A DNA stretch of 39,306 nt. Origin: Candidatus Kaiserbacteria bacterium RIFCSPHIGHO2_02_FULL_49_16 (GTDB taxonomy: Bacteria; Patescibacteriota; Minisyncoccia; Phycocordibacterales; UBA2100). The DNA lies in the NCBI GenBank assembly GCA_001781465.1, contig MFLD01000036.1, positions 15,816-55,121 of the forward strand, in the 5' to 3' direction. A program made the translations under genes and the position numbers. Below the pieces are notes generated by a model. That model ran no database searches. It was not told the origin of the DNA and saw nothing but the letters and a program-made list of their open reading frames with translations. Position 1 is the first letter of the stretch. Every line of letters begins with the position of its first letter. Shown piece after piece: positions 1,539-38,717 of the stretch.

Positions 1539-1907
1539 ATGAAACACATAAAATCGGAGGAATTGGTTGAACTGCGCGCGCAATTGGATGCTGAATTAGA
1601 TGCTCTTCAGGAGGAACTTGCTTCACACGGCAAAGCGGCTCCGGAAAGCGGAGACTGGCAGGGAACGACTGGCGGTCTTGTCGGCGAAGAAGCTGATCCA
1701 AACGACGCGGCAGACCAGATGGAAGAACTGGCCACGAATGTGCCTCTCGTTGAAGAACTCGAGAAAAGATACAAGGATGTCGCATCGGCGCTCCAAAATA
1801 TGGAGAAGGGAACCTATGGAATTTGCGAGGACTGCGAGGATGCGATTCCAATGGACAGATTGCGGGCTAACCCTGCGGCGCGAACTTGCATAACGCATAG
1901 CAAATAA
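1539..1907 (+). CDS. DksA/TraR family C4 zinc-finger protein
   Basis: Coiled coil with DPNDAAD followed by GTYGICEDC...RLRANPAARTCITH. Confidence 0.9.
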   Translation: MKHIKSEELVELRAQLDAELDALQEELASHGKAAPESGDWQGTTGGLVGEEADPNDAADQMEELATNVPLVEELEKRYKDVASALQNMEKGTYGICEDCEDAIPMDRLRANPAARTCITHSK

Positions 1908-1946
1908 TGCATAGTAAGTGGTGCGTAGTTAGTAGTCAGTAGTGGA
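1891..1946 (+). repeat. Degenerate heptamer tandem array across the stop codon
   Basis: TAACGCA TAGCAAA TAATGCA TAGTAAG TGGTGCG TAGTTAG TAGTCAG TAGTGGA. Confidence 0.6.
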
Positions 1947-1984
1947 GGAGTAGCATCCAAGCCTGTAATGGGTATTAAAGTAAG

Positions 1985-2012
1985 TCGGCTCAGAAGAAAT
2001 CTTCTGAGCCGA
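1985..2012. terminator. Hairpin, probable terminator
   Basis: TCGGCTCAGAAG-AAAT-CTTCTGAGCCGA downstream of the DksA-like gene; no strong U-tract. Confidence 0.5.
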
Positions 2013-2092
2013 AATACATTTAAAAATTAAATATTTCAATATCTAATTCTTAAATGTACTCAAGGAGCAATGCGAATCGCAAGATTCGCGTT

Positions 2093-2122
2093 AGGATAGC
2101 TCTCGCTATCCTTTCTTTTTTT
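2093..2122 (+). terminator. Intrinsic terminator-like hairpin
   Basis: AGGATAGC-TCTC-GCTATCCT followed by a T-rich run. Confidence 0.55.
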
Positions 2123-2260
2123 CAGATCGAATTTCGATCTGCTGTATACATTATCCGACGATTCCTTGAAATTAGTCTGATATTATGTATTATTAGTATG
2201 ACAAATCGAATAAATGGCTCTATACAGGGTTATTAAAGGATTAGATAATTGTCGGAAAAT

Positions 2261-3013
2261 ATGTACAAAAAGGAACTTATGGGCGCGGGGCTTACGCACA
2301 AGCAAGCGCAGGTGTATGTCGCTTGCTTGGAAGCTGGCCCATCCAAGATTCCGCAAATCGCCAGCTTGTCTCAAATAAAAAGAACTACGGTCTACGGGAT
2401 AGTGGAAGAATTGGAGGCATTAGACCTCGTCAAAAGCAGTTACAATGGAAAACAGAAGCTCTATGAGGCGCAAGACCCGGCACTTATCCTCTCGATGCTG
2501 GAGGAGAGGAAGAGGCGAATGACTGAAATCCTGCCTGGGCTCACTAATTTGTTCATCACGCATCGCGTGCGCCCGAAAATCTCTTTTTTCGAAGGGCGGG
2601 AAGGAGTAAGAAAAATTTATGACGATGTTCTCGAATGTAAATCAAAAGAGGTCAAACAGGTCGTACGCGTACGGCAGCATAACGAGGCTGTGGGCGATGC
2701 ATTTATTAAGGAGTTTATTAGAAAGAGAGTCGCGCGCGGTATTGTCACGCACAATCTTCATCCAAAGCATGGGGACCTTTATACAAATGAGCGGGGAATG
2801 GAGGACCTGAAGCGCAAGCGATTCGTGCGCTATCTTCCCCCGTCCGTTTTTTATGCGGCCATAATCATGATTTACGACCACAAAGTGGCAATGGTCTCGA
2901 CTAAGGAAGAAAATTTCGGTTTCATAATTGAAAGCAAGGAATTCTCGAACACGATAAGCGCATACTTCGATTTCATGTGGGGACTTGGGTCAAAAGAACC
3001 GGACCTTTCGTGA
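2261..3013 (+). CDS. TrmB family transcriptional regulator
   Basis: N-terminal wHTH (GLTHKQAQVY...RTTVYGIVEEL), PKISFFEGREG, C-terminal IYDHKVAMVS...FDFMW. ATG 2261 is preferred over TTG 2249. Confidence 0.85.
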   Translation: MYKKELMGAGLTHKQAQVYVACLEAGPSKIPQIASLSQIKRTTVYGIVEELEALDLVKSSYNGKQKLYEAQDPALILSMLEERKRRMTEILPGLTNLFITHRVRPKISFFEGREGVRKIYDDVLECKSKEVKQVVRVRQHNEAVGDAFIKEFIRKRVARGIVTHNLHPKHGDLYTNERGMEDLKRKRFVRYLPPSVFYAAIIMIYDHKVAMVSTKEENFGFIIESKEFSNTISAYFDFMWGLGSKEPDLS

Positions 3014-3038
3014 TTTTAATCCATAGTACAATATCTCC

Positions 3039-6059: not shown

Positions 6060-7091
6060 CTATATCCTCTCCTTGCTCTCCGAAAAATAAACCCTGTTTT
6101 TTGAAATGCCGAGTGTTTTCAATCGCTTCACGACAAAATCATTCATCGCTTTTTCAGTTTTGAATTTCAGAACTTTGTTCTTGTCTATCACAGCCCACTG
6201 TTTGACGGCCCGCAGGACATCCACTTTGTTGAAGACGATGTGCGTGACGCCGTTCATTCGAATCGCGCGCTCGAGCGTCTGCATATTCATCCAGTTGCAC
6301 TGACGGCGACGGCCTGTCGTTGAGCCGAATTCCTCGCCGATATCGCCGATTTTGTCGAAGACCTCTCCCTTGGGCTGGAATTTTTTGCTTCCAACATAGG
6401 TCTCATAGATTTTTGCAACACCCCAGACATCGCGGATTGCCGTCGCGGGCAGACCGTTGAGTAACGCCCCCGCCGTCGTGCAGTGAGAAGAAGTTACGAA
6501 CGGGTAATCGCCCCAATCAATATCTAACCCGAATCCCTGCGCGCCCTCGGCGAGGATTTTTACATCTTTTTCCCTCGCACCCCTCGACCCTGCTCGGGGT
6601 AAATACCACTCTTTATATAAATCAACGAGATAGGGTTTTAGAGAGGACACCTTCTCCGCGCGCACGCCGGTGCGTCCGTACTTATCGCGATATGCCGGTC
6701 CGTTTCCGCGGCCGGTCGTGCCGATTTTACCTCCGCCTTTTTTATCTTCTGCTTTATGCGCGTTCGTAATCACATGCGCGTTCCGCGCGATGAATATTTT
6801 GCCCGCGGTTTTGACTCCGCCGTCTTCCAGCATTTTAATTTCGCGAAAAAATTGTGCCGGGTCTACCACGCAACCGGAGCCGATGACGCTCCGCACTCCG
6901 AAAAAAACTCCCGCCGGAATGTGGTGGGTGATAAATTTCTTTCCCTTATGAAAAATCGTGTGCCCCGCGTTGCACCCGCCGTTGTAGCGGAGCACATGAG
7001 TATATTTTTTATTCTTGCACAAAAAGTGGGCGACCTTGCCCTTCCCGCAATCCCCGTATTGGAGATCGACTATGACATCGGTTGTAACCAC
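6060..7091 (-). CDS. purA: Adenylosuccinate synthetase, short form
   Basis: QYGDCGKGK, GGCNAGHT, IGTTGRGNGP, EGAQGFGLDIDWGDYPFVTSS, EFGSTTGRRR. Confidence 0.93.
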   Translation of the reverse strand: MVTTDVIVDLQYGDCGKGKVAHFLCKNKKYTHVLRYNGGCNAGHTIFHKGKKFITHHIPAGVFFGVRSVIGSGCVVDPAQFFREIKMLEDGGVKTAGKIFIARNAHVITNAHKAEDKKGGGKIGTTGRGNGPAYRDKYGRTGVRAEKVSSLKPYLVDLYKEWYLPRAGSRGAREKDVKILAEGAQGFGLDIDWGDYPFVTSSHCTTAGALLNGLPATAIRDVWGVAKIYETYVGSKKFQPKGEVFDKIGDIGEEFGSTTGRRRQCNWMNMQTLERAIRMNGVTHIVFNKVDVLRAVKQWAVIDKNKVLKFKTEKAMNDFVVKRLKTLGISKNRVYFSESKERI

Positions 7092-8976: not shown

Positions 8977-11900
8977 ATGACTTCTCCCGGCGCAAAATAT
9001 CTTGAAGGCCTGAACGAAGTCCAAAAACAGGCTGTTTTGCACAAAGACGGGCCGCTTTTAATCGTCGCGGGGGCTGGCGCGGGAAAGACTAAAACCATAA
9101 CTCACCGAATCGCACATCTCATAGAGAGCGGGGTGCCATCTAGGAGCATTCTTGCCGTCACATTCACCAACAAGGCGGCGGGGGAAATGCGCGAGAGGGT
9201 GAGCCGGCTTCTTCCTGGGGCGCGAGGCGGACTGCCGCTCATTGCGACATTCCATTCGCTCGGAGTCCGTCTCCTGCGGGAATTCCACAAAGAGGCGAAA
9301 ATCCCCCGCGGGTTCTCGATTTGGGACCAAGACGATAGCTCACGAGCGGTCAAAGCCATTTTGAAACAACTCGGCACCGATGAATGGACGCCGAGGCAGA
9401 TACTTTCGGCAATTTCGCGCGAAAAGGGAGCGGGGAAGGCGATGCGCGACTATCGCGAAAAAGCGGGAAACCGCCGTGAACAGATGGTGGCGCTCGTATG
9501 GGAGCGATACGAAAAAGTTCTGAACGAAGAAGGCGGACTCGACTTTGACGACCTTCTGTTTCGTACTCTCACACTTTTCCGCGACTCGCCAAAAACACTT
9601 TCGCTTCTGCAAAATCGCTGGCACTATCTAACGATTGATGAGTATCAGGACACAAGCGCTGTGCAATATGAAATGATGAAGCTTCTTTGCGGGGATCGGA
9701 GCAATATTTGCGTAGTGGGCGACTTGGACCAGTGTCTCGTTGCAGGAACACAGATAACCATGGCTGACGGTACGACAAAATCGATTGAGTCCGTACATGC
9801 TGGGGATTTCGTTCTGTCCAATCACGGAAGCGGACACCTAAAACCCACAAGAGTGACTCGTTCTCGCTCGCGCAAATTCACGGGCGACCTCGTTGAGCTC
9901 ACATTCAAGTCGGGCAAAAAACTCGCGAGTACTCCGGAGCATATCCATTTCGCCGGATATAGATTGGGAATCGTTCCGCAATCATATTTCACATATCTTA
10001 TGCATAAGCGAGGCATCGGGTGGCGTATCGGCGTTTCGCAAGTGTATACAAACGGGCAGCGGATGCCGATGATTGGATTTCGGCTTCGCTACAATCAAGA
10101 ACATGCTGACAAGGTGTGGATTGTTGGCACGCACACGACACCAAATGAAGCCCGTGTTTTTGAGTACATCACTTCGCTCGAGTACAAAATACCAACCATT
10201 CCCTTCGTGGCCCGCAAAGGCCTAAGTCTAAAGGGTTATGTGCATGACCAACGGGCAATAGAAAGTGTGTTTGAACATTTTGATACCGACAGCGCGGCGC
10301 GCAAACTCCTGAAAGCGCGCGGACTAACTTATGAATATCCTCATCATCGCGCGCAGGCAACGACAGGCGAGCGGCGGAACATCGTCGTTACACTTTGCGG
10401 AAGCCAAAGAAAGATGACGCCGATGCATCGCATTGCTATTGCCGCAAGCGACCCAAAAGACAAGCGGGCACTCGAATCAATAGGCCTCTCGATACGACCG
10501 GCAAAAAAAGGTTCGGCCAATTGGCGATTCGAAAGCGCGTACAAAGATTATGGGGCTTTGTGTGAAATCGTGAAAAAAATACAGGCCGTATTGCCACACG
10601 CAGAAGTTGTCGAGATGGCGCGCCTCGGTGGCAACAAAAAGAAACCGAAAGACGGCAATTCTCTCCCATATCTACCGGCCAGCTCCGTTTTGCCTGGCAT
10701 GGCAGTGTTCGACGGCAAAAATAACTACGATATTGTGGAGCGGGTTAAGCGTGTCCCCGCAAAACAATCTTTGGTTTACGACTTGGACATCGAAAATACC
10801 CATAACTTCATAGCAAATGGCATTGTGACCCACAATTGCATCTACACATGGAGACAGGCGGAGATTGAGAATTTGCTTTCGTTCGAGCGCATTTTTTCCA
10901 AAGCGAAAGTCGTTCGGCTCGAACAAAACTACCGCTCGACGCGGACAATTCTTGCCGCGGCAAATTCTGTGATTGAAAAAAATTCAAATCGCATTCCAAA
11001 AACGCTTTTCAGCGAAGGCGCGACAGGCGAGCCGATAACAACCTACGATGCGATGAATGAGCGGGACGAATCGTGGTTTGTCGTTGAGCAATCGGCGCTG
11101 TTGATGGATAAAAAAGTGCCCGCGAATGAAATCGCGGTTCTTTATCGGGAAAATTCACAGTCGCGAGTGCTGGAGGAAGCTTTTTTGCACGCGGGCTTGC
11201 CGTATCGCGTGCTCGGCACGCGATTTTTCGAGCGCAAGGAGGTGAAAGATGTGCTTTCATATCTGCGGGCTGGGCTGAATCCCAAAAGTAAAAGTGATGT
11301 GGTGCGAATAGTCGGAGTGCCTCCTCGTGGAATCGGGAAGGTAACGCTTGAGAAAATGTTTGCGGGCGAAGTATTGGGTGGAGCCGGGGCAAAGGTGACG
11401 GCGTTTCAAAGCACGCTCGCAAAAATCAGAGAGGCCATAAAAGTTTTACCCGCATCTGAAGCCGTTCGTTTCTGTATTGAAGCAAGCGGGATACAAAAGA
11501 TGTTTGATGGAAAAACAGAAGAAGGCCGTGAACGGCTCGGCAACATCCGTGAGTTGGCAAACCTCGCGGCAAAATACGAGAACGAAGAACCGCCGTCGGG
11601 AATTGAGAAACTTCTGGAAGAAGCCGCTCTCCAGAGCGAGCAGGACCAGCTTGACGTGGACAAAGACAAGGGGGGCGTCACTCTTATGACGGTGCACGCT
11701 TCCAAAGGACTGGAGTTTGATGCGGTCTTTATAGTGGGAATGGAACAGGGGCTGTTTCCATCTATGAGGAACGATGCGGAGCGAGACCCGGAAGAAGAAC
11801 GACGGCTGTTTTATGTTGCTCTCACGCGCGCACGAAAGCATTTGTTCCTTTCTTACGCGCACGAGCGCACAAAGTACGGTTCGCGGGAAGGAGCAGTGCC

Positions 11901-11982
11901 ATCAGAATTTTTATCCGATATTGACTCCCGATTGATGAAACATGCGACGAATACTGAGGAAAAGGAGGATATTATTGATTGA
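8977..11982 (+). CDS. pcrA: UvrD/PcrA SF1 DNA helicase containing an intein
   Basis: AGAGAGKT, TFTNKAA, DEYQD, LEQNYRS, TVHASKGLEF, EERRLFYVALTRA. Confidence 0.93.
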   Translation: MTSPGAKYLEGLNEVQKQAVLHKDGPLLIVAGAGAGKTKTITHRIAHLIESGVPSRSILAVTFTNKAAGEMRERVSRLLPGARGGLPLIATFHSLGVRLLREFHKEAKIPRGFSIWDQDDSSRAVKAILKQLGTDEWTPRQILSAISREKGAGKAMRDYREKAGNRREQMVALVWERYEKVLNEEGGLDFDDLLFRTLTLFRDSPKTLSLLQNRWHYLTIDEYQDTSAVQYEMMKLLCGDRSNICVVGDLDQCLVAGTQITMADGTTKSIESVHAGDFVLSNHGSGHLKPTRVTRSRSRKFTGDLVELTFKSGKKLASTPEHIHFAGYRLGIVPQSYFTYLMHKRGIGWRIGVSQVYTNGQRMPMIGFRLRYNQEHADKVWIVGTHTTPNEARVFEYITSLEYKIPTIPFVARKGLSLKGYVHDQRAIESVFEHFDTDSAARKLLKARGLTYEYPHHRAQATTGERRNIVVTLCGSQRKMTPMHRIAIAASDPKDKRALESIGLSIRPAKKGSANWRFESAYKDYGALCEIVKKIQAVLPHAEVVEMARLGGNKKKPKDGNSLPYLPASSVLPGMAVFDGKNNYDIVERVKRVPAKQSLVYDLDIENTHNFIANGIVTHNCIYTWRQAEIENLLSFERIFSKAKVVRLEQNYRSTRTILAAANSVIEKNSNRIPKTLFSEGATGEPITTYDAMNERDESWFVVEQSALLMDKKVPANEIAVLYRENSQSRVLEEAFLHAGLPYRVLGTRFFERKEVKDVLSYLRAGLNPKSKSDVVRIVGVPPRGIGKVTLEKMFAGEVLGGAGAKVTAFQSTLAKIREAIKVLPASEAVRFCIEASGIQKMFDGKTEEGRERLGNIRELANLAAKYENEEPPSGIEKLLEEAALQSEQDQLDVDKDKGGVTLMTVHASKGLEFDAVFIVGMEQGLFPSMRNDAERDPEEERRLFYVALTRARKHLFLSYAHERTKYGSREGAVPSEFLSDIDSRLMKHATNTEEKEDIID
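9733..10836 (+). mobile_element. Intein (368 aa) in helicase motif III
   Basis: Host VGDLDQ | CLVAGTQITMADG ... block B TPEH ... VYDLDIENTHNFIANGIVTHN | CIYTWR. Confidence 0.93.
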
Positions 11983-13314: not shown

Positions 13315-13366
13315 GGAGTTTCGTGTGCTGTTGCTACTCAACGCTATACGCTATACGCTATACTCT

Positions 13367-14290
13367 ATGAACTGGCTTCGCGCTCACAGATATACAGCCA
13401 CGCTAATCGCGGCGGCCGTTTTCGTTGTCGTTGGCGGAATACTGGCAAAAAATAAAGAGGGAACAGTTGTACTAATAAGCGGAGATACGCGAAATGTTTC
13501 GGTGGGATATCCATATTACGCTCCGCCTGCTATATCTCCGGAGGTTAAACCTCCGGAGATTGCAGACAACGCGTCTCCGCGCGCGCTATTTTTTGGCCAA
13601 AAAGTAAAGTTGGAAGAAACTCCGGCCATATCTCCGGAGGTTAAACCTCCGGAGGTTCTGGCGGTAACTCGAAATAATTCTCTCGACAATCAATACGCAC
13701 TTTTCTTTAAAGCACTTTCAAATATTCTCTCGCCCGTTGATAAACGTACTCCGGAGCAAAAGGTGCTTTTTGATTATGGAAATCAAGTTGGACTGGCAAT
13801 ACGAAATTTTGAAGATACGCACGGCAACGTTACTCAAGTATTAAGAGACTTCTTTGATAGCCGTACCGACTTCGCTAAAATAGCGAGCATCCCTGAAGCC
13901 GCGGATAAATACGCGCAACTAACCGCGTTGATTGGAGGCAAGAATCAATCAGTTTCCAAGGAATCCGCAATGGCAAATGTTCAAGGAGTCGTGAATGACT
14001 ACGCGCAATTGAGTGTCGCGATACGGAACGTACCTAATGTTCCTCCGCAAGTAGAATCAGCGAATGCGAAACTCTCAAGGGGATACTCCGATGTAGCACA
14101 GGGTCTTTCTCTCCTTACAAAAACAGAAAACGAAGCCCAGTTGCTTGAAGCCATCAAAGCGTACAACGCTGATGCGGATGAATTTATAGAAAATTACGTG
14201 TATCTCATACAGCTTTTCTCCGCGTATGGAGTAAAATTCTCCGCAAACGACCCGGGCTCCGTTTTTTCTTTCAGTTTTGGGGGTCTCTAG
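13367..14290 (+). CDS. Hypothetical N-terminally anchored helical protein
   Basis: Start MNWLRAH followed by one TM helix. The longer ORF from 13139 overlaps the opposite-strand gene and runs through hairpins. Confidence 0.75.
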   Translation: MNWLRAHRYTATLIAAAVFVVVGGILAKNKEGTVVLISGDTRNVSVGYPYYAPPAISPEVKPPEIADNASPRALFFGQKVKLEETPAISPEVKPPEVLAVTRNNSLDNQYALFFKALSNILSPVDKRTPEQKVLFDYGNQVGLAIRNFEDTHGNVTQVLRDFFDSRTDFAKIASIPEAADKYAQLTALIGGKNQSVSKESAMANVQGVVNDYAQLSVAIRNVPNVPPQVESANAKLSRGYSDVAQGLSLLTKTENEAQLLEAIKAYNADADEFIENYVYLIQLFSAYGVKFSANDPGSVFSFSFGGL

Positions 14291-19857: not shown

Positions 19858-20403
19858 ATGGAACCTGACAATGAAGAGAAGATACTAGATGAGAAAATAC
19901 AGGAGCGCTTCAAAGCATTACCGAAGGCGCTCCAAAACGCCATCACATCGGCAGATGTTGAAAAAAAACTGCGCGACCTATCAGATGTTCATAAACTGCA
20001 CCTCGACCAGTGGCAGAAACTTGAAAATGAAGTGATGCTCGCGCTCTTGGGTTTCCAGCCGGTGGAAAAGCTGGTAGCGAACATCAAAAACGAAGTCGGC
20101 CTTACCGATGAAATCGCGGAGGCGCTTGCGGGAGACATAGCGGATACAATCTTTCAGCCAATCCGCGCGGAGTTGGAACGCGAATTGGGAAAACCGGAAG
20201 ATGAGCCAGTAGCCAGTAGCTTGCAGCCGGTAGCAGAAAAGCCCGTAGCTAGTAGCCAGCAGCCAGTAGCATCTACTCCGCCGCCCGCTCCGCCAATGGC
20301 AAAATCGGTGCGAGCGACTCTGTCGCCCGCGTATGCGTCGGATACGAAAAGCCATGAGCGCAAGACCGTTGACGACGACCCATATCGCGAAGCGATAGGG
20401 TAG
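19858..20403 (+). CDS. Hypothetical cytoplasmic protein with C-terminal DPYRE motif
   Basis: Helical N-terminal domain, Pro-rich linker, ends DDDPYREAIG. Confidence 0.8.
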   Translation: MEPDNEEKILDEKIQERFKALPKALQNAITSADVEKKLRDLSDVHKLHLDQWQKLENEVMLALLGFQPVEKLVANIKNEVGLTDEIAEALAGDIADTIFQPIRAELERELGKPEDEPVASSLQPVAEKPVASSQQPVASTPPPAPPMAKSVRATLSPAYASDTKSHERKTVDDDPYREAIG

Positions 20404-20427
20404 TCGTCGCAAAGCTTCTAGCCAGAA

Positions 20428-20851
20428 TGTCTTTGCGAGCGTAGCGAAGCAATCTAGTACATCGTCGCATAATGTCGCTTATGATTCCCTGCGTATACAT
20501 TCTTGCGAGCAAGAGAAATGGCACATTGTATACAGGAGTAACGTCGCATCTGGAAAAACGGCTACAGGAACATCAATCGGGGACACTGGAGGGATTCACT
20601 AAGAAATACCACGTACACATGCTGGTATATTACGAAGTACACGAGACGATTGCTGATGCCATATCACGTGAGAAACAGATCAAAGGCGGTTCTCGAAAAA
20701 AGAAGTTAGCCCTCATTGAAAGCGTAAATCCAGCGTGGCGGGACTTGTCGGGGGAATTGTAAATACACTCTGGATTGCTTCCCGCCACGCTGCGCTCGCG
20801 GTCGCAAAGACAATGCGCTTACTGGATTGCTTCGCTATGCTCGCAATGACA
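20428..20851. mobile_element. GIY-YIG cassette bounded by 32-bp inverted repeats
   Basis: 20428-20459 and 20820-20851 are reverse complements with 3 mismatches; an extra degenerate copy lies at 20770-20812. Confidence 0.65.
20481..20762 (+). CDS. Stand-alone GIY-YIG nuclease family protein
   Basis: VYILAS.RNGTLYTGVT..L..R..EH, FTKKY, AISREKQIK, NPAWRDL. Start is 20481 or 20472. Confidence 0.92.
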   Translation: MIPCVYILASKRNGTLYTGVTSHLEKRLQEHQSGTLEGFTKKYHVHMLVYYEVHETIADAISREKQIKGGSRKKKLALIESVNPAWRDLSGEL

Positions 20852-20993
20852 CAGTACACGTCATCCTGAAGAAACGAATTCGCTGCTGTCCGAAGTGAGC
20901 AGGATGTTGCGTGTTATGATAGAGAAACTAGAGGCAAGCAACTAGCCGTCATTTATGTTTTGCCTAGAAGCTAGTCCCTAGCAGCTAATTCAT

Positions 20994-21458
20994 ATGCAAT
21001 TCCAAGTACCGCAATTCATAGAGGTTGAGGATAAAATCTTCGGACCGCTTACGTTCAAGCAGTTCGTATATGTTGCCGGCGGAGCGGGCACGTGCTATCT
21101 CTTCTGGAAAATCCTGCCCGTACTTGTCTCTGTGCCGCTTATCGCTGTTACCGCTGGGCTCGCCGCCGTTCTCGCATTTTTCCAATTCAACGGGAGGCCT
21201 TTCATCGCCGCGCTCGAGCATGGTTTTTATTTTCTTATCAGAAGCAAGCTCTACTTATGGAGAAACGAGAGCGGCAGAGAACATGCTACGACAAAAAAGC
21301 AGATGCTCGATAAGCACTCGCAGGAAACGACTCTCGTTCATGTCCCAATCCTTTCCAACAGCAAGCTACATGATCTCGCGTGGAGCTTGGACATAAAAGA
21401 GCGCATCACAGAGAGCGAGAATGAAGACGAGAGTAAACAGTTGACAGTTTACAGATAA
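20994..21458 (+). CDS. PrgI family (VirB3-like) membrane protein
   Basis: QFQVPQFIEVEDKIFGPLTFKQF, two TM helices, NGRPF. Confidence 0.85.
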   Translation: MQFQVPQFIEVEDKIFGPLTFKQFVYVAGGAGTCYLFWKILPVLVSVPLIAVTAGLAAVLAFFQFNGRPFIAALEHGFYFLIRSKLYLWRNESGREHATTKKQMLDKHSQETTLVHVPILSNSKLHDLAWSLDIKERITESENEDESKQLTVYR

Positions 21459-21531
21459 CAGCACAATGCAAAAATACAAACCCACAAACTTTCTGTCGAC
21501 TGTAAACTGTAAACTGTAAACTATTCCTATG
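21432..21531 (+). repeat. 100-bp heptamer-based hairpin element, copy 1
   Basis: 98/100 identical to 22175-22274. Confidence 0.95.
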
Positions 21532-22179
21532 CCCCAAGCGCTCGCAAGCAAAAAATCAACACAGGATTTCGTACCGGTGCGCGAGGTGCGCGATGGAATT
21601 ATTGTCCTAAAAGACGGCGGCCTGCGCGCGGTTCTCTTGGCGTCATCAATAAACTTCGCCTTGAAATCCGATGACGAGCAGACGGCTTTCATAACTCAAT
21701 TTCAGAGCTTCCTGAACTCTCTGGATTTTTCCGTGCAAATATTCATAGAATCTCGCATGTTGGACATCCGGCCATATGTAGACACGCTAGAGGTCGCATA
21801 CAAAGAACAACTAAACGACTTGATGCGCGTCCAGATACGCGAGTACATAGAGTTCATCAAAAGTTTCACCGAGACTGCCAGCATAATGACTAAAAATTTC
21901 TTCGTGGTGGTGCCGTACGCGTCTTCAGGATTGAGCACGGGTACTTCAGGCCCGTCTTCATTTCTCCCATGGAACAGAAAAAAGGTCTCCGCCGAGCAGG
22001 AAGATAAATCGTTCGGAGAAAAGGTGTCGCAGTTGGAACAGCGCATTGGAATCGTTCAGCAAGGGCTCGTGCGCACCGGCGTCCGAACAGTACAATTGGG
22101 AACCGAGGAGGCGATAGAACTTCTGTACAAATTATTCAACCCCGGCGAGGAAGGGAAGCCGATGACGCTTGAGCAGTAA
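21529..22179 (+). CDS. T4SS-associated protein resembling the N-terminal region of VirB4/TraC
   Basis: SSINFALKS..EQ..F..FLNSLDF.VQI, FFVVVPY; lies between PrgI and VirB4. Confidence 0.75.
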   Translation: MPQALASKKSTQDFVPVREVRDGIIVLKDGGLRAVLLASSINFALKSDDEQTAFITQFQSFLNSLDFSVQIFIESRMLDIRPYVDTLEVAYKEQLNDLMRVQIREYIEFIKSFTETASIMTKNFFVVVPYASSGLSTGTSGPSSFLPWNRKKVSAEQEDKSFGEKVSQLEQRIGIVQQGLVRTGVRTVQLGTEEAIELLYKLFNPGEEGKPMTLEQ

Positions 22180-22274
22180 ACAGTTGACAGTTTACAGATA
22201 ACAGCACAATGCAAAAATACAAACTCACAAACTTTCTGTCGACTGTAAACTGTAAACTGTAAACTATTCTTATG
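22175..22274 (+). repeat. 100-bp heptamer-based hairpin element, copy 2
   Basis: Runs from the upstream TAA to the VirB4 ATG. Confidence 0.95.
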
Positions 22275-24167
22275 TCTCTCCTCGACCTATTCAGAAGTAA
22301 AAAATCGGAAGCGGAAACATCCGCTCTGCCGATACTCCCGCAGGATATATACTCGGCCGGCGTTCTTGATCTGCAGGACGTAATCGCCCCGCACGCGCTT
22401 CGGATAAGTTCGCGCGAGCTGGATTTAGGCGAGCGCATCGCGCGCACCTTTTTCGTAATCTCGTATCCGCGTTTTCTCACTACGGGATGGTTCGCGCCTA
22501 TTATCAACATGGACAAAGTTCTGGACATTTCCATATTCATTCATCCGATGGACACGAGCGAGATGCTCAGGAAATTCCAAAAGAAAGTCGCCGAGGTTCA
22601 GAGCCAGATATCCACGCGCGAGCAAAAGGGAATGGTGCGCGACCCTATGCTCGACACGGCATATTCCGACCTTGAGGGACTGCGTGATTCTCTCCAACAG
22701 GCGCAGGAGCGAATTTTTGAGGTCGGCCTGTATCTCACAATTTACGGCAACACGCGGGACGCGATAGATAAGACAGAGTCCGAGATACGTTCCGTTTTGG
22801 AATCGCGCCTCGTATATATACGACCGGCGCTCTTTCAGCAAGAGCAGGGGTTCCGAAGCGTCCTTCCTCTCGGCAATGATGAACTTGATGTGCACACGAA
22901 ACTCAATTCCGCCCCGCTCTCGTCAATATTCCCATTTATTTCGTTCGACCTCACTTCGAACCGAGGTATTTTGTACGGAATCAACAGGCATAATTCCTCG
23001 CTCATACTCTTTGACCGATTTTCTTTGGAAAACTACAACTCGGTCACTTTCGCAAAAAGCGGTTCTGGAAAGAGTTATTGCACAAAATTGGAAATCCTGC
23101 GCTCGCTCATGTTCGACACGGAGGTTATCGTCATAGACCCAGAACGAGAATATGAGTATCTGGCGTCTACTGTCGGAGGCCGTTACTTCAATATATCTCT
23201 CTCATCGGAACATCATATCAACCCATTCGACCTCGCCATTCCGCGCGAAGACGAGAATCCAGCGGACATTTTGCGCTCCAACATCATCACTCTTGTCGGA
23301 CTTTTCCGCATCATGCTGGGCGGACTCTCTCCTGAAGAAGACGCGATTGTCGATAGAGCGATAACCGAAACGTACGCGCTGAAGGACATTACCCCGGAAG
23401 CAAATTTTGCGGCAATAGAGCCGCCGCTTCTCTCCGACTTCGAACTCGTTCTTTCTGGAATGGAGGGAAGCGAGTCGCTAGTTCAGCGACTTTCCAAATA
23501 CACCAAGGGTACGTGGGCTGGTTTTATGAACAGGCCTACGAATGTCGACATGAACAAGAAACTTATCGTCTTTTCCGTACGCGACATGGAGGATGATTTG
23601 AAACCGATAGCGATGTACATTATTACGCACCACATTTGGAACGTGGTGCGCAAAGAACTTCGCAAACGATTACTCGTCATAGACGAAGCGTGGTGGATGA
23701 TGCGCTCCGCGGACACGGCATCGTTCCTATTTTCCATCGCAAAGAGAGGAAGAAAATATTTCCTGGGCATTTCCACCATCACCCAGGATGTCTCGGACTT
23801 TCTCAACTCCCCATATGGAATGCCGATGATTACTAACTCGTCCATACAATTGCTCTTGCGGCAATCTCCGACTTCGGTGGACTTGGTACAGCAAACTTTC
23901 AAACTGTCAGATGAAGAAAAATATCTTCTGCTGGAATCGGATGTCGGCGAAGGGATATTTTTCGCCGGCCTCAAACATGTCGCGATTAAGATTATCGCGT
24001 CGTATACGGAAGATCAGATTATTACCTCTGACCCGTCGCAAATTCTCGCAATCCGCAAGGCAAAACAAGACCTCGCAGACACGAATAGCGCTAACGCAGG
24101 AGCAGCTATAGCGGGTATCACTCCGGCGCAAAGCACTGCTTCAAATCAGAGAAGCGCCGTCGGATGA
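22272..24167 (+). CDS. virB4: VirB4-like type IV secretion ATPase
   Basis: Walker A AKSGSGKS, IDPEREY, INPFD, Walker B LVIDEAW, KRGRKY, TQDVSDF. Confidence 0.9.
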   Translation: MSLLDLFRSKKSEAETSALPILPQDIYSAGVLDLQDVIAPHALRISSRELDLGERIARTFFVISYPRFLTTGWFAPIINMDKVLDISIFIHPMDTSEMLRKFQKKVAEVQSQISTREQKGMVRDPMLDTAYSDLEGLRDSLQQAQERIFEVGLYLTIYGNTRDAIDKTESEIRSVLESRLVYIRPALFQQEQGFRSVLPLGNDELDVHTKLNSAPLSSIFPFISFDLTSNRGILYGINRHNSSLILFDRFSLENYNSVTFAKSGSGKSYCTKLEILRSLMFDTEVIVIDPEREYEYLASTVGGRYFNISLSSEHHINPFDLAIPREDENPADILRSNIITLVGLFRIMLGGLSPEEDAIVDRAITETYALKDITPEANFAAIEPPLLSDFELVLSGMEGSESLVQRLSKYTKGTWAGFMNRPTNVDMNKKLIVFSVRDMEDDLKPIAMYIITHHIWNVVRKELRKRLLVIDEAWWMMRSADTASFLFSIAKRGRKYFLGISTITQDVSDFLNSPYGMPMITNSSIQLLLRQSPTSVDLVQQTFKLSDEEKYLLLESDVGEGIFFAGLKHVAIKIIASYTEDQIITSDPSQILAIRKAKQDLADTNSANAGAAIAGITPAQSTASNQRSAVG

Positions 24168-24242
24168 ACGCGGATGGGGGTGCGCGCGCGTTATCGTTGC
24201 CGCATGTGTGGTAACCCTACATTGCCGAGATATAATTAACGT

Positions 24243-29673: not shown

Positions 29674-29763
29674 GAGCCAGTAGCTGGTAGCCCGTAGCTT
29701 GCAACCACTCAAAAATTCTGAATTTCTTCTGGCTACTGGCTACGAGCTACAGGCCACGAACTA
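29674..29763. repeat. Heptamer-based inverted-repeat element (TAGC/GCTA type)
   Basis: AGCCAGT AGCTGGT AGCCCGT AGCTTGC ... GGCTACT GGCTACG AGCTACA GGCCACG. Confidence 0.8.
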
Positions 29764-31512: not shown

Positions 31513-32616
31513 ATGAATCTAACAACAACTAAAGAAAAAATTCTTTCGGCATCTGTTATAGCGGAACGAGTGGTTGGAAAAAAAGAATCACTACCAATAC
31601 TTTCCTGTGTTCTTTTGGATGCAGGAAGTACTTTGTACGTCCGTTCAACAAATTTAGAATCAGCGATTGATATTAGCGTAGTATCTGAAATTAAAGAGAA
31701 AGGAACAATAGCGGTTCCTGCCACTATATTTTCACAAACAATAAAGTCTATAAATAGTGACAAAATTTCTCTTAAATCAGAATCTGGAAACCTACTGGTT
31801 GAATCTCGCGGCGCGCGAACTCTTATCAAATCCATTCCTAACGAGGAATTTCCTATACTATCGCGCGGTGATGATAGCAAGAAAAGTAGTTCGATATTAA
31901 GACTAACCCTATTAAAGGGGATTCAATCGGTCTTATATTCGGCATCCCGCTCGATGATAAGGCCGGAACTTGGAAGTATTTATATATCAATAAAAAAAGA
32001 ACAAGTTATCTTTGCGGCCACGGACTCATTTCGATTAGCGGAAAGAATTGTGACGGGAAAAAATTCCTCCGGAGAGGAGGGGGAATTTTTAGTCCCGCTA
32101 AAACACGCGGCGGAGCTTGTGTATTTATTAGACCGCAGCCTTGGCGAGAGTGTGAAAATACATTCATCAGACTCGCAATTTATCGTTGAAGCGGATAGCG
32201 CCAGATTCGCCGCGCGTGTTGTCGAGGGCGTCTTCCCAAACTACTCCGAAATCGTCCCAAAACAATTCACAACCGAAGCGACTGTCCTAAAAAATGATTT
32301 CGCGGAGATGTTGCGCAAGGCGCGCGTGTTTTCCGGAAACGACCAGCATGTTGGACTGCATGTGTATCCAAAAAAGAAGATTTTCTCCGCTACCGCGCAG
32401 AGCCCAGATGTGGGAGAGACGTCTGACTCGATTGACGCGGCTGTTTCGGGCGAAGATATCGATATAAAATTCCACATCGGCTATATCTCAGACTGTATGC
32501 CCGTTATAGATTCCGACAGCATTACGCTTGGGTTTTCGGGACCCAACAGACCGCTCGTAATCCGCGGAGTATCAGACGCCGATTTTATGTATCTGGTGAT
32601 GCCGCTTAACCGCTAG
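31513..32616 (+). CDS. dnaN: DNA polymerase III beta clamp
   Basis: LPILS, TNLE, ATDSFRLAE, GVFPNY, YLVMP; follows dnaA. Confidence 0.96.
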   Translation: MNLTTTKEKILSASVIAERVVGKKESLPILSCVLLDAGSTLYVRSTNLESAIDISVVSEIKEKGTIAVPATIFSQTIKSINSDKISLKSESGNLLVESRGARTLIKSIPNEEFPILSRGDDSKKSSSILRLTLLKGIQSVLYSASRSMIRPELGSIYISIKKEQVIFAATDSFRLAERIVTGKNSSGEEGEFLVPLKHAAELVYLLDRSLGESVKIHSSDSQFIVEADSARFAARVVEGVFPNYSEIVPKQFTTEATVLKNDFAEMLRKARVFSGNDQHVGLHVYPKKKIFSATAQSPDVGETSDSIDAAVSGEDIDIKFHIGYISDCMPVIDSDSITLGFSGPNRPLVIRGVSDADFMYLVMPLNR

Positions 32617-32690
32617 CCGGTAGCAAACTCAAAAAACTCTCTGCATTCGGATTTCTCTGGCTGCTGGCTACAAGCTACGGGCTACCAGCT
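32613..32690. repeat. Heptamer-based element (TAGC/GCTA type) between convergent stops
   Basis: TAGCCGG TAGC ... GGCTGCT GGCTACA AGCTACG GGCTACC AGCT. Confidence 0.8.
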
Positions 32691-35128: not shown

Positions 35129-35209
35129 GTGAACTGAATTGTACAATGAACATTGCGTTGCAAACAGCGGCAATTTGTGGCATCTTCAGGTATTCAATCC
35201 TCTCTCTTC

Positions 35210-36235
35210 ATGAAAACAAAACTCAAATACGGAGAGAATCCACACCAAAAAGCCGCCGCGACACGGAGAGCGACAACGGACGCTCTCGCTGTCGCGAAAT
35301 TCAGGCGGGAAGATGGGAGTCCGTTTGTATACGAGAACACAAGCTGGATTTCAATAACTGACCTCGGACGGCTAATTCAGGTTGTTGAAAGATTCGCGGC
35401 GGCGTACCGGAGAAATGTTAGCGCGGCCATTCCTCATTTTGCGGCAATAGTTAAACACGGCAGCCCATGTGGCGCCGCGTTTGGAGAAAATCCGGAGCAG
35501 GTCGTGCGCGAAACATGGGCAGGCGACTCGCAGGCGGCATTCGGAGGATTCCTCGCTGTCACGTTTCCATTTACCGGAAAAATTGTAGTGGCGCTTACAG
35601 AAGCAAACAGAGGAAAGATGCCGTTTTTGAGCGGAGTCGCGGCGCCTTCGTTTGAGGAAGGGGTAACGGAAAAAATTGGCGCGAAGAGCAAAGGAACGCA
35701 TTTCATTTCAAACAAAGCGCTTGCAAAGATTCCGGCGAAAATTTTCTCGTTGCCGGAAATTAAATCCGTGCGGGATTTTATTCTCGAGCAAACATCTATG
35801 CAATTTATCCCGGAGTTTGTGAATATGGAGTATCACGGACCAGCGTTTTCGGAAAAAGAGAAAAAACAAATCTTTGCCGACCTCTCGCTTGCGTACGCAG
35901 TGTGTTCCTCGAGCACCAGCAATACGATTTCTCTGGCGAAAGACGGAATCTTGATAGGAAATGCGGTAGGACAGCAAAAACGAGTTGGAGGCGCGAAGCT
36001 TGCGCTCCGACTTGCGAGCGAAAGCAATCATGATGCAAGGGGAGCCGTGGCAGTTTCGGATAGTTACTTCCCATTCCCAGACGGGGTTGAAGCATTAGCC
36101 GAAGGAGGAGTTCGAGTGATTTTTGCGACTTCCGGTTCCATTCGCGACAATGTGGTTTTTGCTCGGGCGACGGAATTAAAAGTAGGAATATTTACAGTCC
36201 CAGATAAGATTGGGCGAATGTTCGCGGGGCATTAA
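35210..36235 (+). CDS. purH: PurH-like AICAR transformylase domain protein lacking the N-terminal IMP cyclohydrolase
   Basis: Begins LKYGENPHQ; KHGSPCG, AFGG, SN, GQQKRV, SDSYFPFPDG, GSIRD, terminal R.F.H-like end. Confidence 0.8.
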   Translation: MKTKLKYGENPHQKAAATRRATTDALAVAKFRREDGSPFVYENTSWISITDLGRLIQVVERFAAAYRRNVSAAIPHFAAIVKHGSPCGAAFGENPEQVVRETWAGDSQAAFGGFLAVTFPFTGKIVVALTEANRGKMPFLSGVAAPSFEEGVTEKIGAKSKGTHFISNKALAKIPAKIFSLPEIKSVRDFILEQTSMQFIPEFVNMEYHGPAFSEKEKKQIFADLSLAYAVCSSSTSNTISLAKDGILIGNAVGQQKRVGGAKLALRLASESNHDARGAVAVSDSYFPFPDGVEALAEGGVRVIFATSGSIRDNVVFARATELKVGIFTVPDKIGRMFAGH

Positions 36236-36326: not shown

Positions 36327-36986
36327 TTATAATTTATGAATCGTCACAATCGGGGCCTTAATGACCATGTTGAACCACTCCTTGCTCGCACCATAATCGA
36401 CCCTATAACCATTCCCCTGTAGTTCTTGCAGAAATTGTTCAAGCTTCTTCGCTCCCTCGACTCTCTTTTCAGCCCGAAACGTGTCTTCCGTTCTCGTCCT
36501 GCGAGGCAGTCGTTTTAGATCCGTTGCCGAACTATCTGGAGTTGCAATAGTTCCTAATATTTTCCCTCCCTTTTTTAACACACGAAGAGCTTCGCCTATT
36601 GCCTGCCGCATTTCCTTTTCTTCGCTTTCAACTAACATTGTAAAATATTGTCTTGCAGTAACGATATCAAAAGTCTCATTCCCGAACGGGAGATGGAGGC
36701 CATTTCCCACCACAATTCCTTCTTGACATGGACGGACTATTCCTATCCTGTTTTCAACACCGTATGCCCGTGTGTTCTTTAGAACTTTCCTCAAGTATCC
36801 AATAAAAGATCCATCGCCAGCCCCAATGTCCAGCAACGGTTTTTGCACGTCATCATTTGTCAAAGAAAAGTGCTTCGTATATGTACGAAAAGCGCTCTCA
36901 AGTGCTCTGCGGTTTTGCACGTTTTCCTGAGCAGGTTTCCCCGCGTTATTTTGCGATATGTGGCGCAGCCTTTCAAGGAATTTCAT
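36327..36986 (-). CDS. Class I SAM-dependent methyltransferase
   Basis: LLDIGAGDG, LPFGNETFD, RVLKKGG. Confidence 0.85.
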   Translation of the reverse strand: MKFLERLRHISQNNAGKPAQENVQNRRALESAFRTYTKHFSLTNDDVQKPLLDIGAGDGSFIGYLRKVLKNTRAYGVENRIGIVRPCQEGIVVGNGLHLPFGNETFDIVTARQYFTMLVESEEKEMRQAIGEALRVLKKGGKILGTIATPDSSATDLKRLPRRTRTEDTFRAEKRVEGAKKLEQFLQELQGNGYRVDYGASKEWFNMVIKAPIVTIHKL

Positions 36987-37067
36987 ACAAATAGTCTATC
37001 ATGCAGAATAAATTGCCATTTGACTCGCTGGACACTAACCATGCACAAGAATTTGTAAAAACAAAGA

Positions 37068-37169
37068 TCAATTTGCAAAGAAATCCCAAATCGCAATAAT
37101 CAAACAATTGATTTTGGAAATTCGCATTGGAATTTAATTTGCAAATTGCAAATTGGAGTTTGCAAATTA
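37068..37169. repeat. Short-period inverted-repeat element (TTTGCAAAT type) starting at the ruvC stop
   Basis: AATTTGCAAAG AAATCCCAAAT CGCAA ... TTTGCAAA TTGCAAA TTGGAGT TTGCAAA TTA. Confidence 0.6.
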
Positions 37170-37643
37170 GTGCCGGTGTCTCGCCCAGTGCGTCACTCCC
37201 ACGGCTATCGCGTCGTACTCATCATCATATTTTATTTCTTTTTCGATTTTCACGAGAGCGTGAAGCATCTTTGCGATTTGCTGTTTGTCTGCTCGGCCGG
37301 AGCCGCCCGCCGCGCTCTTGATTTCGCCGGGAGTGTATTCAAAAACCGGAATACCGAGGCTTGTTGCGAGTTGGATAAGAGCTCCGCGCACTTCGGCGAC
37401 GCGCATGACGGTTTTCTGGTTCGTACTGAAGTAAAGCTTTTCCATCGCGAGCGCATCCGGCTTGTATTTTTTTGCGAGTCGCGTGCATTCGTCTGCGACA
37501 ATTCCAAGCCGAGCGGTAAACTCGGTATCTTTAGACGTTTGTATGCAAGCGGAATAGAGTAGGGTTTCTTTTTTCCCGTTTTCGCGTTCTAGTACGGCGA
37601 CTCCGCATCTGCCGTAGCCGGGGTCGATAGCCAAGACGCGCAT
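37167..37643 (-). CDS. ruvC: Holliday junction resolvase RuvC
   Basis: LAIDPG, MEKLYF..N, EVRG, EYTP.EIK, DDEYDAIA. Confidence 0.95.
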   Translation of the reverse strand: MRVLAIDPGYGRCGVAVLERENGKKETLLYSACIQTSKDTEFTARLGIVADECTRLAKKYKPDALAMEKLYFSTNQKTVMRVAEVRGALIQLATSLGIPVFEYTPGEIKSAAGGSGRADKQQIAKMLHALVKIEKEIKYDDEYDAIAVGVTHWARHRH

Positions 37644-37712
37644 AGTTTACAGTTTACAGTCTACAGTTTACAGAACCAGAGGTGAGTTCGCATTTGCTGT
37701 CAACTGTTTACT
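37641..37712 (-). repeat. Third, shorter copy of the ACAG/CTGT heptamer element filling the yebC-ruvC gap
   Basis: Minus strand reads AGTAAACAGTTGACAG ... CTGTAAA CTGTAGA CTGTAAA CTGTAAA CT-ATG. Confidence 0.85.
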
Positions 37713-38238
37713 CTGCATTTGTATACACATCCTCCACGTCGTCGTGCGAGTCAATCTCGTCCAGGATTTTGTGGAGCTTCTCGCTGTCAGATTCGGAAAG
37801 TTTCACCGCGGTCTTGGGGGCGTAGTCCGTGCCTGTTTTTTCAAACGCCCACATCGCGCTTCCGGGAGAGGCGAGCGCCAAGCCATTCTCCGACAGAAGA
37901 TGTTTTATTTCTTGCGAGGTTCGATTGTGGCTGTCGGTGAGCGCGACAATCAGAATCGCGACGCCTCCCGGGCCGTAAGTTTCATAAACAACAGTTTCAA
38001 GTGAGCCGGAGTCAGTGGATATTCCTTTCGCGACTGCGCGGTCAATGTTTTCTTTTGGCATATTCGCTTCACGCGCTTTTTCAATGACGGCGCGAAGGTG
38101 GGCCGCATTGACGTCCCCATTCGCCTTTTTGGATTCAACAGAAATTCGCTTAGAGAGTTTGCCCCACACATCTGCTTTCACGGCATCCGCCGCGCCCTTG
38201 CGGTGTTTGATTTGCGACCATTTGTTGTGTCCGGACAT
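37708..38238 (-). CDS. yebC: YebC/PmpR family protein (short, 176 aa)
   Basis: MSGHNKWSQIKHRKG, NMPKENIDRA, YETYGPGG, DDVEDVYTN; upstream of ruvC. Confidence 0.93.
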   Translation of the reverse strand: MSGHNKWSQIKHRKGAADAVKADVWGKLSKRISVESKKANGDVNAAHLRAVIEKAREANMPKENIDRAVAKGISTDSGSLETVVYETYGPGGVAILIVALTDSHNRTSQEIKHLLSENGLALASPGSAMWAFEKTGTDYAPKTAVKLSESDSEKLHKILDEIDSHDDVEDVYTNAE

Positions 38239-38299
38239 GGTGAACAGGGTATAGGTACTAGGTTATAGGGAATAGTGAGAAATGCAAAGAGGGGCGCAA

Positions 38300-38644
38300 T
38301 CATTTCCCATCCTCCCACACCACTTTCTTTCCTCGACTTATTCTTTGCAATTGCGATTGCTTGCGTTCATATTGCCCAATGGCTCGTATATGTTTCCTAG
38401 AGGCTATCTTGAATGTCTCCCAGTCATTCTTTATTTGTGTAGCAAGCTCGCTTCTATAAGTATCAGTGCCCTCGCTCTCTTCTTGCAGTCTTTTTAATTC
38501 TTCCTCGTTCACTACAATTTTCCTCCGCAGTTCAACAAGCGCTAGTCTCATAGCTTCAATTTTATCCCCCAATGCCCCAAGCGTGACATGTATTTTTTCA
38601 CTCGGCTTTTGTTTACTCGGATTGTCTAATCTGAATCTGGACAT
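38300..38644 (-). CDS. Hypothetical coiled-coil protein
   Basis: 114-aa charged helical ORF co-oriented with its neighbours. Confidence 0.6.
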   Translation of the reverse strand: MSRFRLDNPSKQKPSEKIHVTLGALGDKIEAMRLALVELRRKIVVNEEELKRLQEESEGTDTYRSELATQIKNDWETFKIASRKHIRAIGQYERKQSQLQRISRGKKVVWEDGK

Positions 38645-38717
38645 ACGAATAGGGTATAGGGAATAATGGAAAATGCAAAAGAACTTATAATTTCTGTTAC
38701 TTTATTCTGGCGGGTGG

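Follow-up and report, generated by a model that had tools for sequence, protein, structure and literature searches.

Heptamer repeats lying between bacterial genes have been on record since about 1990, yet no origin or function has won acceptance. The short tandemly repeated repetitive (STRR) heptamers of heterocystous cyanobacteria form dispersed tandem arrays, mostly intergenic and with several families per genome, whose function is unexplained. Elements of the REP/REPIN (repetitive extragenic palindromic) and MITE (miniature inverted-repeat transposable element) types are short, intergenic, multi-copy palindromes that resemble a larger element stripped of its genes. Here we describe degenerate heptamer arrays at stop and start codons in a 39.3-kb stretch of DNA (the window; G000:C36:15816-55121), which are probably the arms of a cassette encoding a small four-helix-bundle (4HB) protein. 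Two published systems invite direct comparison. According to one report (PMC4990558), RNase III cuts the stem of the Coxiella 23S rRNA intervening sequence (IVS) at the first tandem heptamer before the S23p open reading frame (ORF); the heptamers are three copies of GACAGAT, and the S23p IVS is regarded as selfish and horizontally acquired. The second system is the TAACTGA repeats described by MacGregor (2015, PMC4679880) in marine Beggiatoaceae, cyanobacteria and Bacteroidetes.

The genome that contains the window (G000, whose contigs are labelled C9, C29, C36 and so on) comprises 904,852 bases in 46 contigs and is 90.8% complete. Its DnaA neighbours place the host among bacteria of the candidate phyla radiation (CPR), as a relative of Candidatus Kaiserbacteria/Paceibacterota and not a cyanobacterium. 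The 80 best DnaA relatives (67-96% identity), drawn from a species-representative genome collection and all metagenome-assembled genomes, are labelled Candidatus Kaiserbacteria, Paceibacterota, Parcubacteria or Patescibacteria, with some automatic 'Saccharibacteria' labels; their loci around DnaA (L001, L003 and so on; 1.41 Mb in total) were used for comparison. A Pfam scan of the 39 ORFs in the window identified an rnpA-yidC-jag/dnaA-dnaN origin region and a PrgI/VirB4-type secretion cluster, as well as PBP1, ruvC, yebC and a UvrD helicase with a probable intein.

Heptamer elements are insertions at gene junctions

A first-pass annotation of the window had listed heptamer arrays at 11 sites, and the sequence at each of them matches its description. 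Tandem Repeats Finder (TRF; score of at least 30) returned period-7 rows at 8 of the 11, missing 20925-20996, 32613-32690 and 38247-38275. A lag-7 scan requiring at least 15/21 matches detected 10, with 20925-20996 alone too degenerate and recognised by eye and by orthology. One array absent from the list lies in frame within an ORF (20204-20270). The period-7 scan of the genome proposed at that stage (at least 16/21 matches) found 148 arrays, far above chance, compared with 12, 2, 19 and 2 at periods 6, 8, 9 and 10, respectively; TRF gave 209 rows at period 7, comprising 79 canonical units, versus 19 and 43 rows at periods 6 and 8. At a stricter threshold the genome contained 45 arrays and a third-order Markov copy of it none. 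Enrichment at gene junctions was borne out, with 128 of the 148 arrays lying more than 50% outside in-house gene calls that cover 83% of the genome. Arrays were found in 26/269 '++', 52/378 '--', 11/88 convergent and 16/92 divergent spacers. Sequence families of 27, 11, 8, 7 and 7 members, plus pairs, accounted for 72 of 124 elements, the largest being the AACTACT family with 27 copies. The 80 related loci together held 78 period-7 arrays versus 2 at period 8, and most of them had none.

A dispersed, inserted element had been suspected, and comparison of filled with empty sites, the check suggested for it, revealed gaps of only 0-17 nt at orthologous junctions. Window genes were located in the 80 related loci and the orthologous spacers were then measured. 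At the junction between the gene encoding the 216-aa VirB4 N-domain protein (g216) and VirB4, period-7 arrays were present in 12/57 loci, while the other loci had a median gap of 5 nt. Filled gaps measured ~88 nt, except that in L001 and L003 the arms enclose a small gene and the gap is 476 nt. The PrgI/g216 junction was occupied in 5/53 loci, with a median gap of 15.5 nt where empty, and at the convergent dnaN/PBP junction the five listed empty loci had 0-17 nt between the genes. At dnaN/PBP the GTAGCNN family of the window also occurs in L003 and L008, and other families occur in L001, L014 and L049; the g216/VirB4 junction by itself has received at least 11 unit families (counted by eye). 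In L040 two adjacent junctions carry arms of one type, one junction holding a cassette and the other an ORF-less hairpin. The ACAGTTT element of the window is common to L006, and some elements are therefore inherited. No target-site duplication was evident when filled and empty junctions were compared. Taken together, these junctions show that the elements are insertions. In L007 the g216/VirB4 spacer measures 16 nt and contains two CTAG-type units, while the related L008 and L014 still carry the hairpin; the short spacer looks like the scar of a lost hairpin.

Despite their differing units, the elements form one architectural family, as the annotation had proposed, in which a YAG/GTA arm, an A-rich loop and a complementary CTR/TAC arm follow one another. 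On the transcribed strand the upstream stop codon, in many cases a TAG that keeps the phase of the array, is followed by three to five YAG/GTA-containing heptamers, the A-rich loop, three to five complementary CTR/TAC heptamers, a degenerate last unit and an ATG. Placement at stop and start codons holds genome-wide (Fisher 3e-12): up to 15 nt after a stop there were 24 YAG/GTA-type arrays and 1 CTR-type array, and up to 15 nt before a start there were 0 and 21, with a median distance of 7 nt from the end of the CTR arm to the ATG. Arm type was assigned by a trinucleotide score, which misclassified two arrays; the G-minus-C skew failed as a classifier on GTATAC- and TTGCAAA-type units and was abandoned. 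An inverted partner (within 160 nt and above the 99th percentile of a random-segment control) was found for 65/146 arrays. The YAG arm came first in 54/56 oriented pairs, the two exceptions looking like scoring errors. The claim that polarity follows transcription thus divides: it describes a real regularity for single arms, while for complete hairpins it is a property of the palindrome, since the order of the arms is identical, YAG first, whichever strand is read.

Complementarity of the arms, also claimed earlier, exceeded chance at four of the seven two-arm sites of the window (21432-21531, 22175-22274, 29674-29763 and 37068-37169; z -3.8 to -5.5, 0/200 dinucleotide shuffles folding as well) and did not at the remaining three. 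Single CTR arms in the window were essentially unstructured. Genome-wide, 17 of 40 co-directional spacers of 50-200 nt folded with z below -3 relative to mononucleotide shuffles, with values down to -11. The 21 clear stems have a median of 26 bp and are built of 4-6-bp helices interrupted by symmetric loops (1x1, 32; 2x2, 18; 3x3, 8), and 7 nt is the commonest spacing between helix starts (23/77).

The arms also seem fitted to the genes that they adjoin. Stop-adjacent arms were expected to present stop codons in all three frames, and this holds for 17/28 compared with 17% of shuffles. TAG is the stop codon of 19/44 array-followed genes versus 251/852 genes overall. A Shine-Dalgarno-like 4-mer precedes 0/33 array-preceded genes versus 156/634 other genes with a free upstream spacer, and the G fraction of the last 20 nt upstream is 0.106 for array-preceded genes versus 0.209. 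Shine-Dalgarno use is low in this organism, with about a quarter of free-spacer genes having GGAG, GAGG, AGGA or AAGG at -20 to -4 despite a choice of starts that favours such motifs.

A four-helix-bundle gene between the arms

A search for 4HB or IVS-type genes enclosed by the same kind of arms, which had been suggested as a check, was successful. The insert between the arms in L001 and L003 looks like a 4HB protein. Two genes of the window's own genome match PF05635, one on C9 (118.4 bits) and one on C29 (53.9 bits). Both lie between inverted heptamer arrays, of GTATCGN units at C9 and of TTGCAAA units at C29, and rank 6th and 9th of 824 genes for complementarity of their flanks. The C9 protein matches TIGR02436 with 111.6 bits (cut-off 24) and PDB 2GSC with an E value of 2e-18. 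Other top-ranked genes were set aside as bearers of ordinary palindromes, not heptamer cassettes: two ArsR-type regulators (C13:7280-7546 and C3:13920-14201) each have the same palindrome upstream and downstream, and three paralogues of 187-190 aa (C18:1561-2130, C23:23721-24284 and C21:14441-15001) have strong palindromes on their flanks.

PF05635 matches occur in 80/151 genomes of the family. In 30 relatives the best match of each genome was examined as a cassette. Flank complementarity was above the 95th percentile in 29/30 and above the 99th in 19/30, and a period-7 array (at least 14/21) was present in at least one flank in 27/30 and in both in 15/30. Seventeen of the 30 stand directly upstream of a PrgI-family gene, at the junction where the window has its decayed hairpin (20925-20996) and relatives hold a 4HB cassette with CTAG-type arms. 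The number of PF05635 matches was 53 in 12 genomes with at least three arrays at the DnaA locus versus 9 in 12 genomes with none (Mann-Whitney p 8e-4), a grouping based on 21 kb per genome and on genomes that are not independent. All copies examined lie between protein-coding genes and none in a helix of 23S rRNA; the examination did not extend to this genome's rRNA genes. The motif AAATGC is found on the inner side of 13/130 oriented arrays and on the outer side of none (background, 1.5% of intergenic 30-nt windows), and in the cassettes of several relatives its complement follows closely on the stop codon of the 4HB gene.

Copies with and without the gene have arms, leader and trailer in common. 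ORF-less TTGCAAA copies retain the leader of the C29 cassette up to its ATG, as well as the trailer; for five copies on other contigs the leader match has z of 3.4-11.4. The window copy at 37068-37169 matches the C29 leader at 27/34 nt on the plus strand, with 0/300 shuffles as good. Since the flanking methyltransferase gene and ruvC are on the minus strand, this copy is antisense to its neighbours.

Arm families travel with the cassette protein and not with the host. Among the 17 cassettes at the PrgI junction, clusters of 4HB proteins coincide with arm family (CAGGTTN, GTAGCNN or CTAGNNN), and no correlation was seen between the identities of the 4HB proteins and those of the neighbouring host genes (Spearman 0.09, 136 pairs). 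L105 and L094, for example, have host genes that are 85% identical, cassette proteins only 55% identical, and different arms. The first-pass annotation had considered the elements to be defined by periodicity rather than sequence, and within a family this could not be upheld. In eight CTAG-armed cassettes mean identity was 0.66 for the protein, 0.39 at third codon positions and 0.79 for the 34-nt 3' arm, the last value being inflated by the ease with which periodic sequence aligns; the 3' arm exceeded third codon positions in 28/28 pairs. The CTAG arms also preserve the succession of their variable triplets. Arm sequence is thus under purifying selection, and its conservation, including triplet order, speaks for a constraint that acts on sequence and not on pairing alone.

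The genome has a gene for RNase III (C44:14730-15119). A search for public RNA runs holding window 20400-24200 listed none. A reverse-transcriptase link, as in the Avd proteins of diversity-generating retroelements (DGR), found no support: RVT_1 had no match in the genome at 90.8% completeness, which does not prove absence. Transposase families were not found among the 39 ORFs of the window by the Pfam scan, nor was a REP-associated tyrosine transposase (RAYT) seen, no dedicated transposase search having been made.

A cassette model and competing explanations

These results support a model, to which we assign a probability of roughly 0.6, in which the arrays are the arms of an IVS-type 4HB (PF05635/TIGR02436) cassette whose ORF-bearing and ORF-less copies have lodged at gene junctions, where they are tolerated and perhaps partly co-opted. 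The cassette would consist of three to five YAG/GTA heptamers, a leader, the small 4HB gene, a trailer and three to five complementary CTR/TAC heptamers, and would enter the few bases between neighbouring genes. Most copies here would since have lost the gene, leaving hairpins of ~70-100 nt, or one arm, leaving single arrays. The anatomy suggests how an insertion might be made harmless: the 5' arm would stop any incoming frame, the stem would bring stop and start together, and the 3' arm would leave a G-poor, unstructured leader free of Shine-Dalgarno sites in an organism that rarely uses them. By analogy with the Coxiella IVS, RNase III would cut the stem on the operon transcript, releasing the cassette RNA and splitting the mRNA. 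Spread between genomes at the same junction could use homologous recombination through conserved flanks, which fits the repeated occupation of one junction by unrelated cassettes. A bolder version of the model, which we put forward tentatively and regard as doubtful as a whole, holds that the heptamer arms are specific recognition sites of a cognate, Avd-like pentameric 4HB protein (three to five units per arm). Acting with the RNase III of the host, such a cassette would amount to an 'intervening sequence of operons' that excises and propagates itself and can enter stop-start gaps harmlessly, and its gutted copies would explain much of the STRR- and TAACTGA-like repeats across phyla.

Several observations weigh against the cassette. 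Only 2 of ~124 elements in this genome carry a PF05635 gene, and none of the AACTACT copies here encloses the gene, which leaves analogy and the relatives to connect that family with the cassette. One array-rich relative (the genome of L060) lacks any PF05635 match. Only two pairs of elements are at least 85% identical over at least 50 nt, one of them the 98/100-nt pair in the window, and copying is therefore rare or old. No inverted partner was found for 74/146 arrays, and among single arms CTR arms before ATGs outnumber YAG arms by 42 to 26, which fits retention for some use by the host better than plain decay. Three two-arm sites in the window fold no better than their shuffles (20925-20996, 32613-32690 and 37641-37712; z -0.6, -1.8 and -1.7). 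The sense RNA is more stable than the antisense in 12/40 spacers and less stable in 28/40, so nothing indicates selection for G-U pairs at the RNA level. Stems interrupted every 7 nt may be poor substrates for RNase III. Finally, the gene calls are crude, arm identity is inflated as stated above, and kinship among genomes was ignored in the cassette/host-gene correlation, the PF05635 group comparison and the arm-conservation test, the significance of which is overstated.

A competing explanation has the arrays serve the host's translation. The CTR/TAC array would be a leader that works independently of Shine-Dalgarno pairing, or the target of an RNA-binding protein (S1, Csp or CsrA-like), and neighbouring cistrons would have their translation coupled or tuned by the hairpins; the link to 4HB genes would be secondary. 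The excess of single CTR arms, the median of 7 nt between CTR arms and the ATG, the G-poor, unstructured leaders of genes without a single Shine-Dalgarno-like motif (0/33) and the strong conservation of the 3' arm all favour it, and the TAACTGA repeats, at the same position, were read in this way (PMC4679880). Close relatives nevertheless manage without arrays, most of the 80 loci having none and empty junctions measuring 0-17 nt, and it is hard to see how one trans-acting factor would recognise the more than 10 unrelated unit families found at a single junction. The YAG arms, the enclosed gene and the elements in convergent and divergent spacers would also be left unexplained, and we consider this account unlikely.

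The remaining explanations invoke either no function or a different one. Slippage could generate long simple repeats for which 7 nt happens to be the favoured unit, with neither function nor mobility: in many genomes heptanucleotides outnumber all other long simple repeats, with slippage put forward as their cause (Mrazek 2007, cited in PMC4679880), copy number differs among Coxiella strains (PMC4990558), and, reading the sequence here, the units of one arm are degenerate copies of each other. Slippage yields direct repeats, not paired inverted arrays with YAG first (54/56), common leaders and trailers and an enclosed gene; nor does it explain arm conservation far above that of third codon positions, or a two-armed element of 80-100 nt at junctions that measure 0-17 nt elsewhere. 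This explanation is already disfavoured and appears very improbable. We rate lowest of all the proposal that the elements are terminators, attenuators or mRNA-stabilising stem-loops of the REP or BIME (bacterial interspersed mosaic element) type kept by the host at gene ends. Stable stems do occur there (z down to -11, and -3.8 to -5.5 at four window sites), including in convergent spacers, but the 3' arm is followed within ~0-10 nt by an ATG and, on reading the sequence, by no T run. Elements also lie inside tightly coupled operons, for example between the split VirB4 halves, where termination would be harmful, and half of the arrays consist of one arm only and so make no stem.

Sites in the window and relation to known systems

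None of the 12 window elements carries a PF05635 gene; all are ORF-less (Table 1).

Table 1. Heptamer arrays and two-arm elements in the window, with strand, immediate context and fold z scores relative to 200 dinucleotide shuffles.
Positions	Strand	Element	Context and measurements
1891..1946	+	Single YAG-type (5'-type) degenerate arm, no partner	Begins at stop of DksA/TraR zinc-finger ORF (1539-1907; Pfam); scan array 1914-1945; z 0.3
13341..13369	+	Single CTR/TAC-type arm, ACGCTAT x4	Ends in ATG 13367-13369; unstructured, z -0.2
20204..20270	+	AGCCAGT-type array, 9.4 units	In frame inside ORF 19858-20403; TRF, scan, frame by hand
20925..20996	+	Decayed two-arm hairpin, CTAGNNN family	Ends at PrgI-family ATG (20994); z -0.6, not above chance
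21432..21531	+	ORF-less two-arm hairpin, ACAGTTT/AAACTGT family	PrgI-family gene to 216-aa VirB4 N-domain gene; stop codon inside first unit, ATG 9 nt past last unit; z -4.5, 0/200 shuffles
22175..22274	+	Second ACAGTTT/AAACTGT copy, 98/100 nt identical to 21432-21531	Between split VirB4 halves; z -3.8, 0/200 shuffles
29674..29763	.	Two-arm hairpin, GTAGCNN/GCTACNN family	Divergent rnpA/dnaA spacer; left arm ~10 nt upstream of likely rnpA ATG (minus strand); z -5.5, 0/200 shuffles
32613..32690	.	Two-arm GTAGCNN-family element, short left arm	Fills convergent dnaN/PBP spacer; z -1.8, 11/200 shuffles
37068..37169	+	ORF-less TTGCAAA-armed cassette copy, family of 7	Leader match to G000:C29 copy; z -4.0, 0/200 shuffles
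37641..37712	-	ACAGTTT-family two-arm element, short 5' arm	yebC stop to ruvC ATG; z -1.7, 12/200 shuffles
38247..38275	-	Single CTR-type arm, G-free, unstructured	Directly upstream of yebC ATG; MFE (minimum free energy) 0 kcal/mol
38645..38667	-	Single CTR-type arm	Preceded by inner-end motif GCATTT, then ATG of ORF 38300-38644

The ATG that ends the arm at 13341-13369 is likely the true start of the ORF running to 14290. The array at 20204-20270 encodes a low-complexity linker rich in proline, valine, alanine and serine, and seems to be an intergenic-type array absorbed into a coding region. The rnpA/dnaA hairpin was also considered as a set of oriC iterons and rejected, the same family being present at dnaN/PBP and other loci.

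Both ACAGTTT copies on the plus strand border the split VirB4. The 216-aa ORF (21529-22179) matches VirB4 N-terminal regions and TrsD/TraD-type proteins (NF045975, NF041427), and the 631-aa ORF that follows (22272-24167) carries the TraG/VirB4 P-loop domain. The junction of the two halves, 2-5 nt in four empty relatives, is a favoured site of hairpin cassettes. The notion that the split is itself a cassette scar was dropped, as a separate TrsD/TraD-type N-domain family exists elsewhere (NF041427 match). Upstream, the segment 20404-20924 holds a small GIY-YIG ORF (20472-20762; PF01541, E 1e-16) with inverted ends of its own. The stop of ORF 19858-20403 precedes it and the decayed hairpin follows, a position at which relatives hold the 4HB gene, and it may be a second kind of selfish insert at the same spot. 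Elsewhere in the window, the two halves of the 1001-aa UvrD-type helicase (8977-11982) are separated by matches to Hint and intein-splicing domains, and the protein, judging from these domains, probably contains an intein. Three housekeeping ORFs are short for their families: adenylosuccinate synthetase (6060-7091, 343 aa), PurH (35153-36235, AICARFT part only, ~341-360 aa) and YebC (37708-38238, 176 aa).

Heptamer repeats and an S23p IVS with heptamers are already known; the cassette link was not found in print. Apart from PMC4990558, the literature covered, which did not include subscription journals, yielded no connection between PF05635 and intergenic heptamer arrays. The present analysis adds clean empty sites at several junctions, a single junction with more than 10 arm families, co-variation of arms with the cassette protein against the host, arm conservation above third codon positions, and statistics for Shine-Dalgarno motifs and three-frame stops. 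The repeats are thereby resolved into an architecture with a fixed order of arms, a cargo gene, clean empty sites and conserved arms that travel with the cargo protein. This offers a testable origin for a long-unexplained bacterial repeat, with hypotheses for the bench in stem cutting by RNase III, binding of the arms by the 4HB protein and coupling of translation across the stem. It also suggests a possible role for the widespread PF05635 family, which includes the Avd proteins of diversity-generating retroelements and whose function outside those elements is unknown. For the annotation of CPR genomes, the elements would account for many unusual spacers, for genes with a short C-terminal extension and for those that lack a Shine-Dalgarno site.

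Like the cyanobacterial STRR heptamers, the arrays described here are dispersed, mostly intergenic and present in several families per genome; they differ from them in their CPR/Patescibacteria host, their units, the inverted two-arm architecture with its fixed order, and the cargo gene. With REP/REPIN and MITE-type elements they have in common that they are short, multi-copy, intergenic palindromes resembling a gutted larger element, whereas their arms are tandem heptamers and not unique inverted repeats, and their cargo is a 4HB protein. Dispersed, mostly intergenic heptanucleotide arrays in several families per genome also bring to mind the long simple-sequence repeats of Mrazek 2007, cited in PMC4679880.

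The likeness to the S23p IVS of Coxiella burnetii, which is also known from Leptospira, extends to a PF05635/S23p ORF between terminal inverted repeats, a stem of comparable length (~28 bp in the IVS), tandem heptamers directly upstream of the ORF start and, in the IVS, a varying copy number (PMC4990558). Excision by RNase III has been shown for the Coxiella IVS and would apply here by analogy. Unlike the IVS, the present elements occupy spacers between protein-coding genes, within operons as well as at convergent and divergent junctions, instead of a 23S rRNA helix. Both of their arms are heptamer arrays, most copies have no ORF or only one arm, and a genome contains many arm families. The TAACTGA repeats (PMC4679880) resemble the CTR arms in being C/A/T-rich heptamer arrays, of 2-6 units there, a few bases upstream of start codons that lack Shine-Dalgarno sites; in this genome 21 CTR arrays lie up to 15 nt from a start, and none of the 33 array-preceded genes has a Shine-Dalgarno-like 4-mer. 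The TAACTGA repeats occur even in ribosomal-protein operons, their patchy taxonomy suggests transfer, and no mechanism is known for them. They have one unit, 169 direct sets versus 1 indirect and no reported enclosed gene, while the elements of this CPR genome have 79 canonical units, an inverted partner for 65/146 arrays and a cargo gene.

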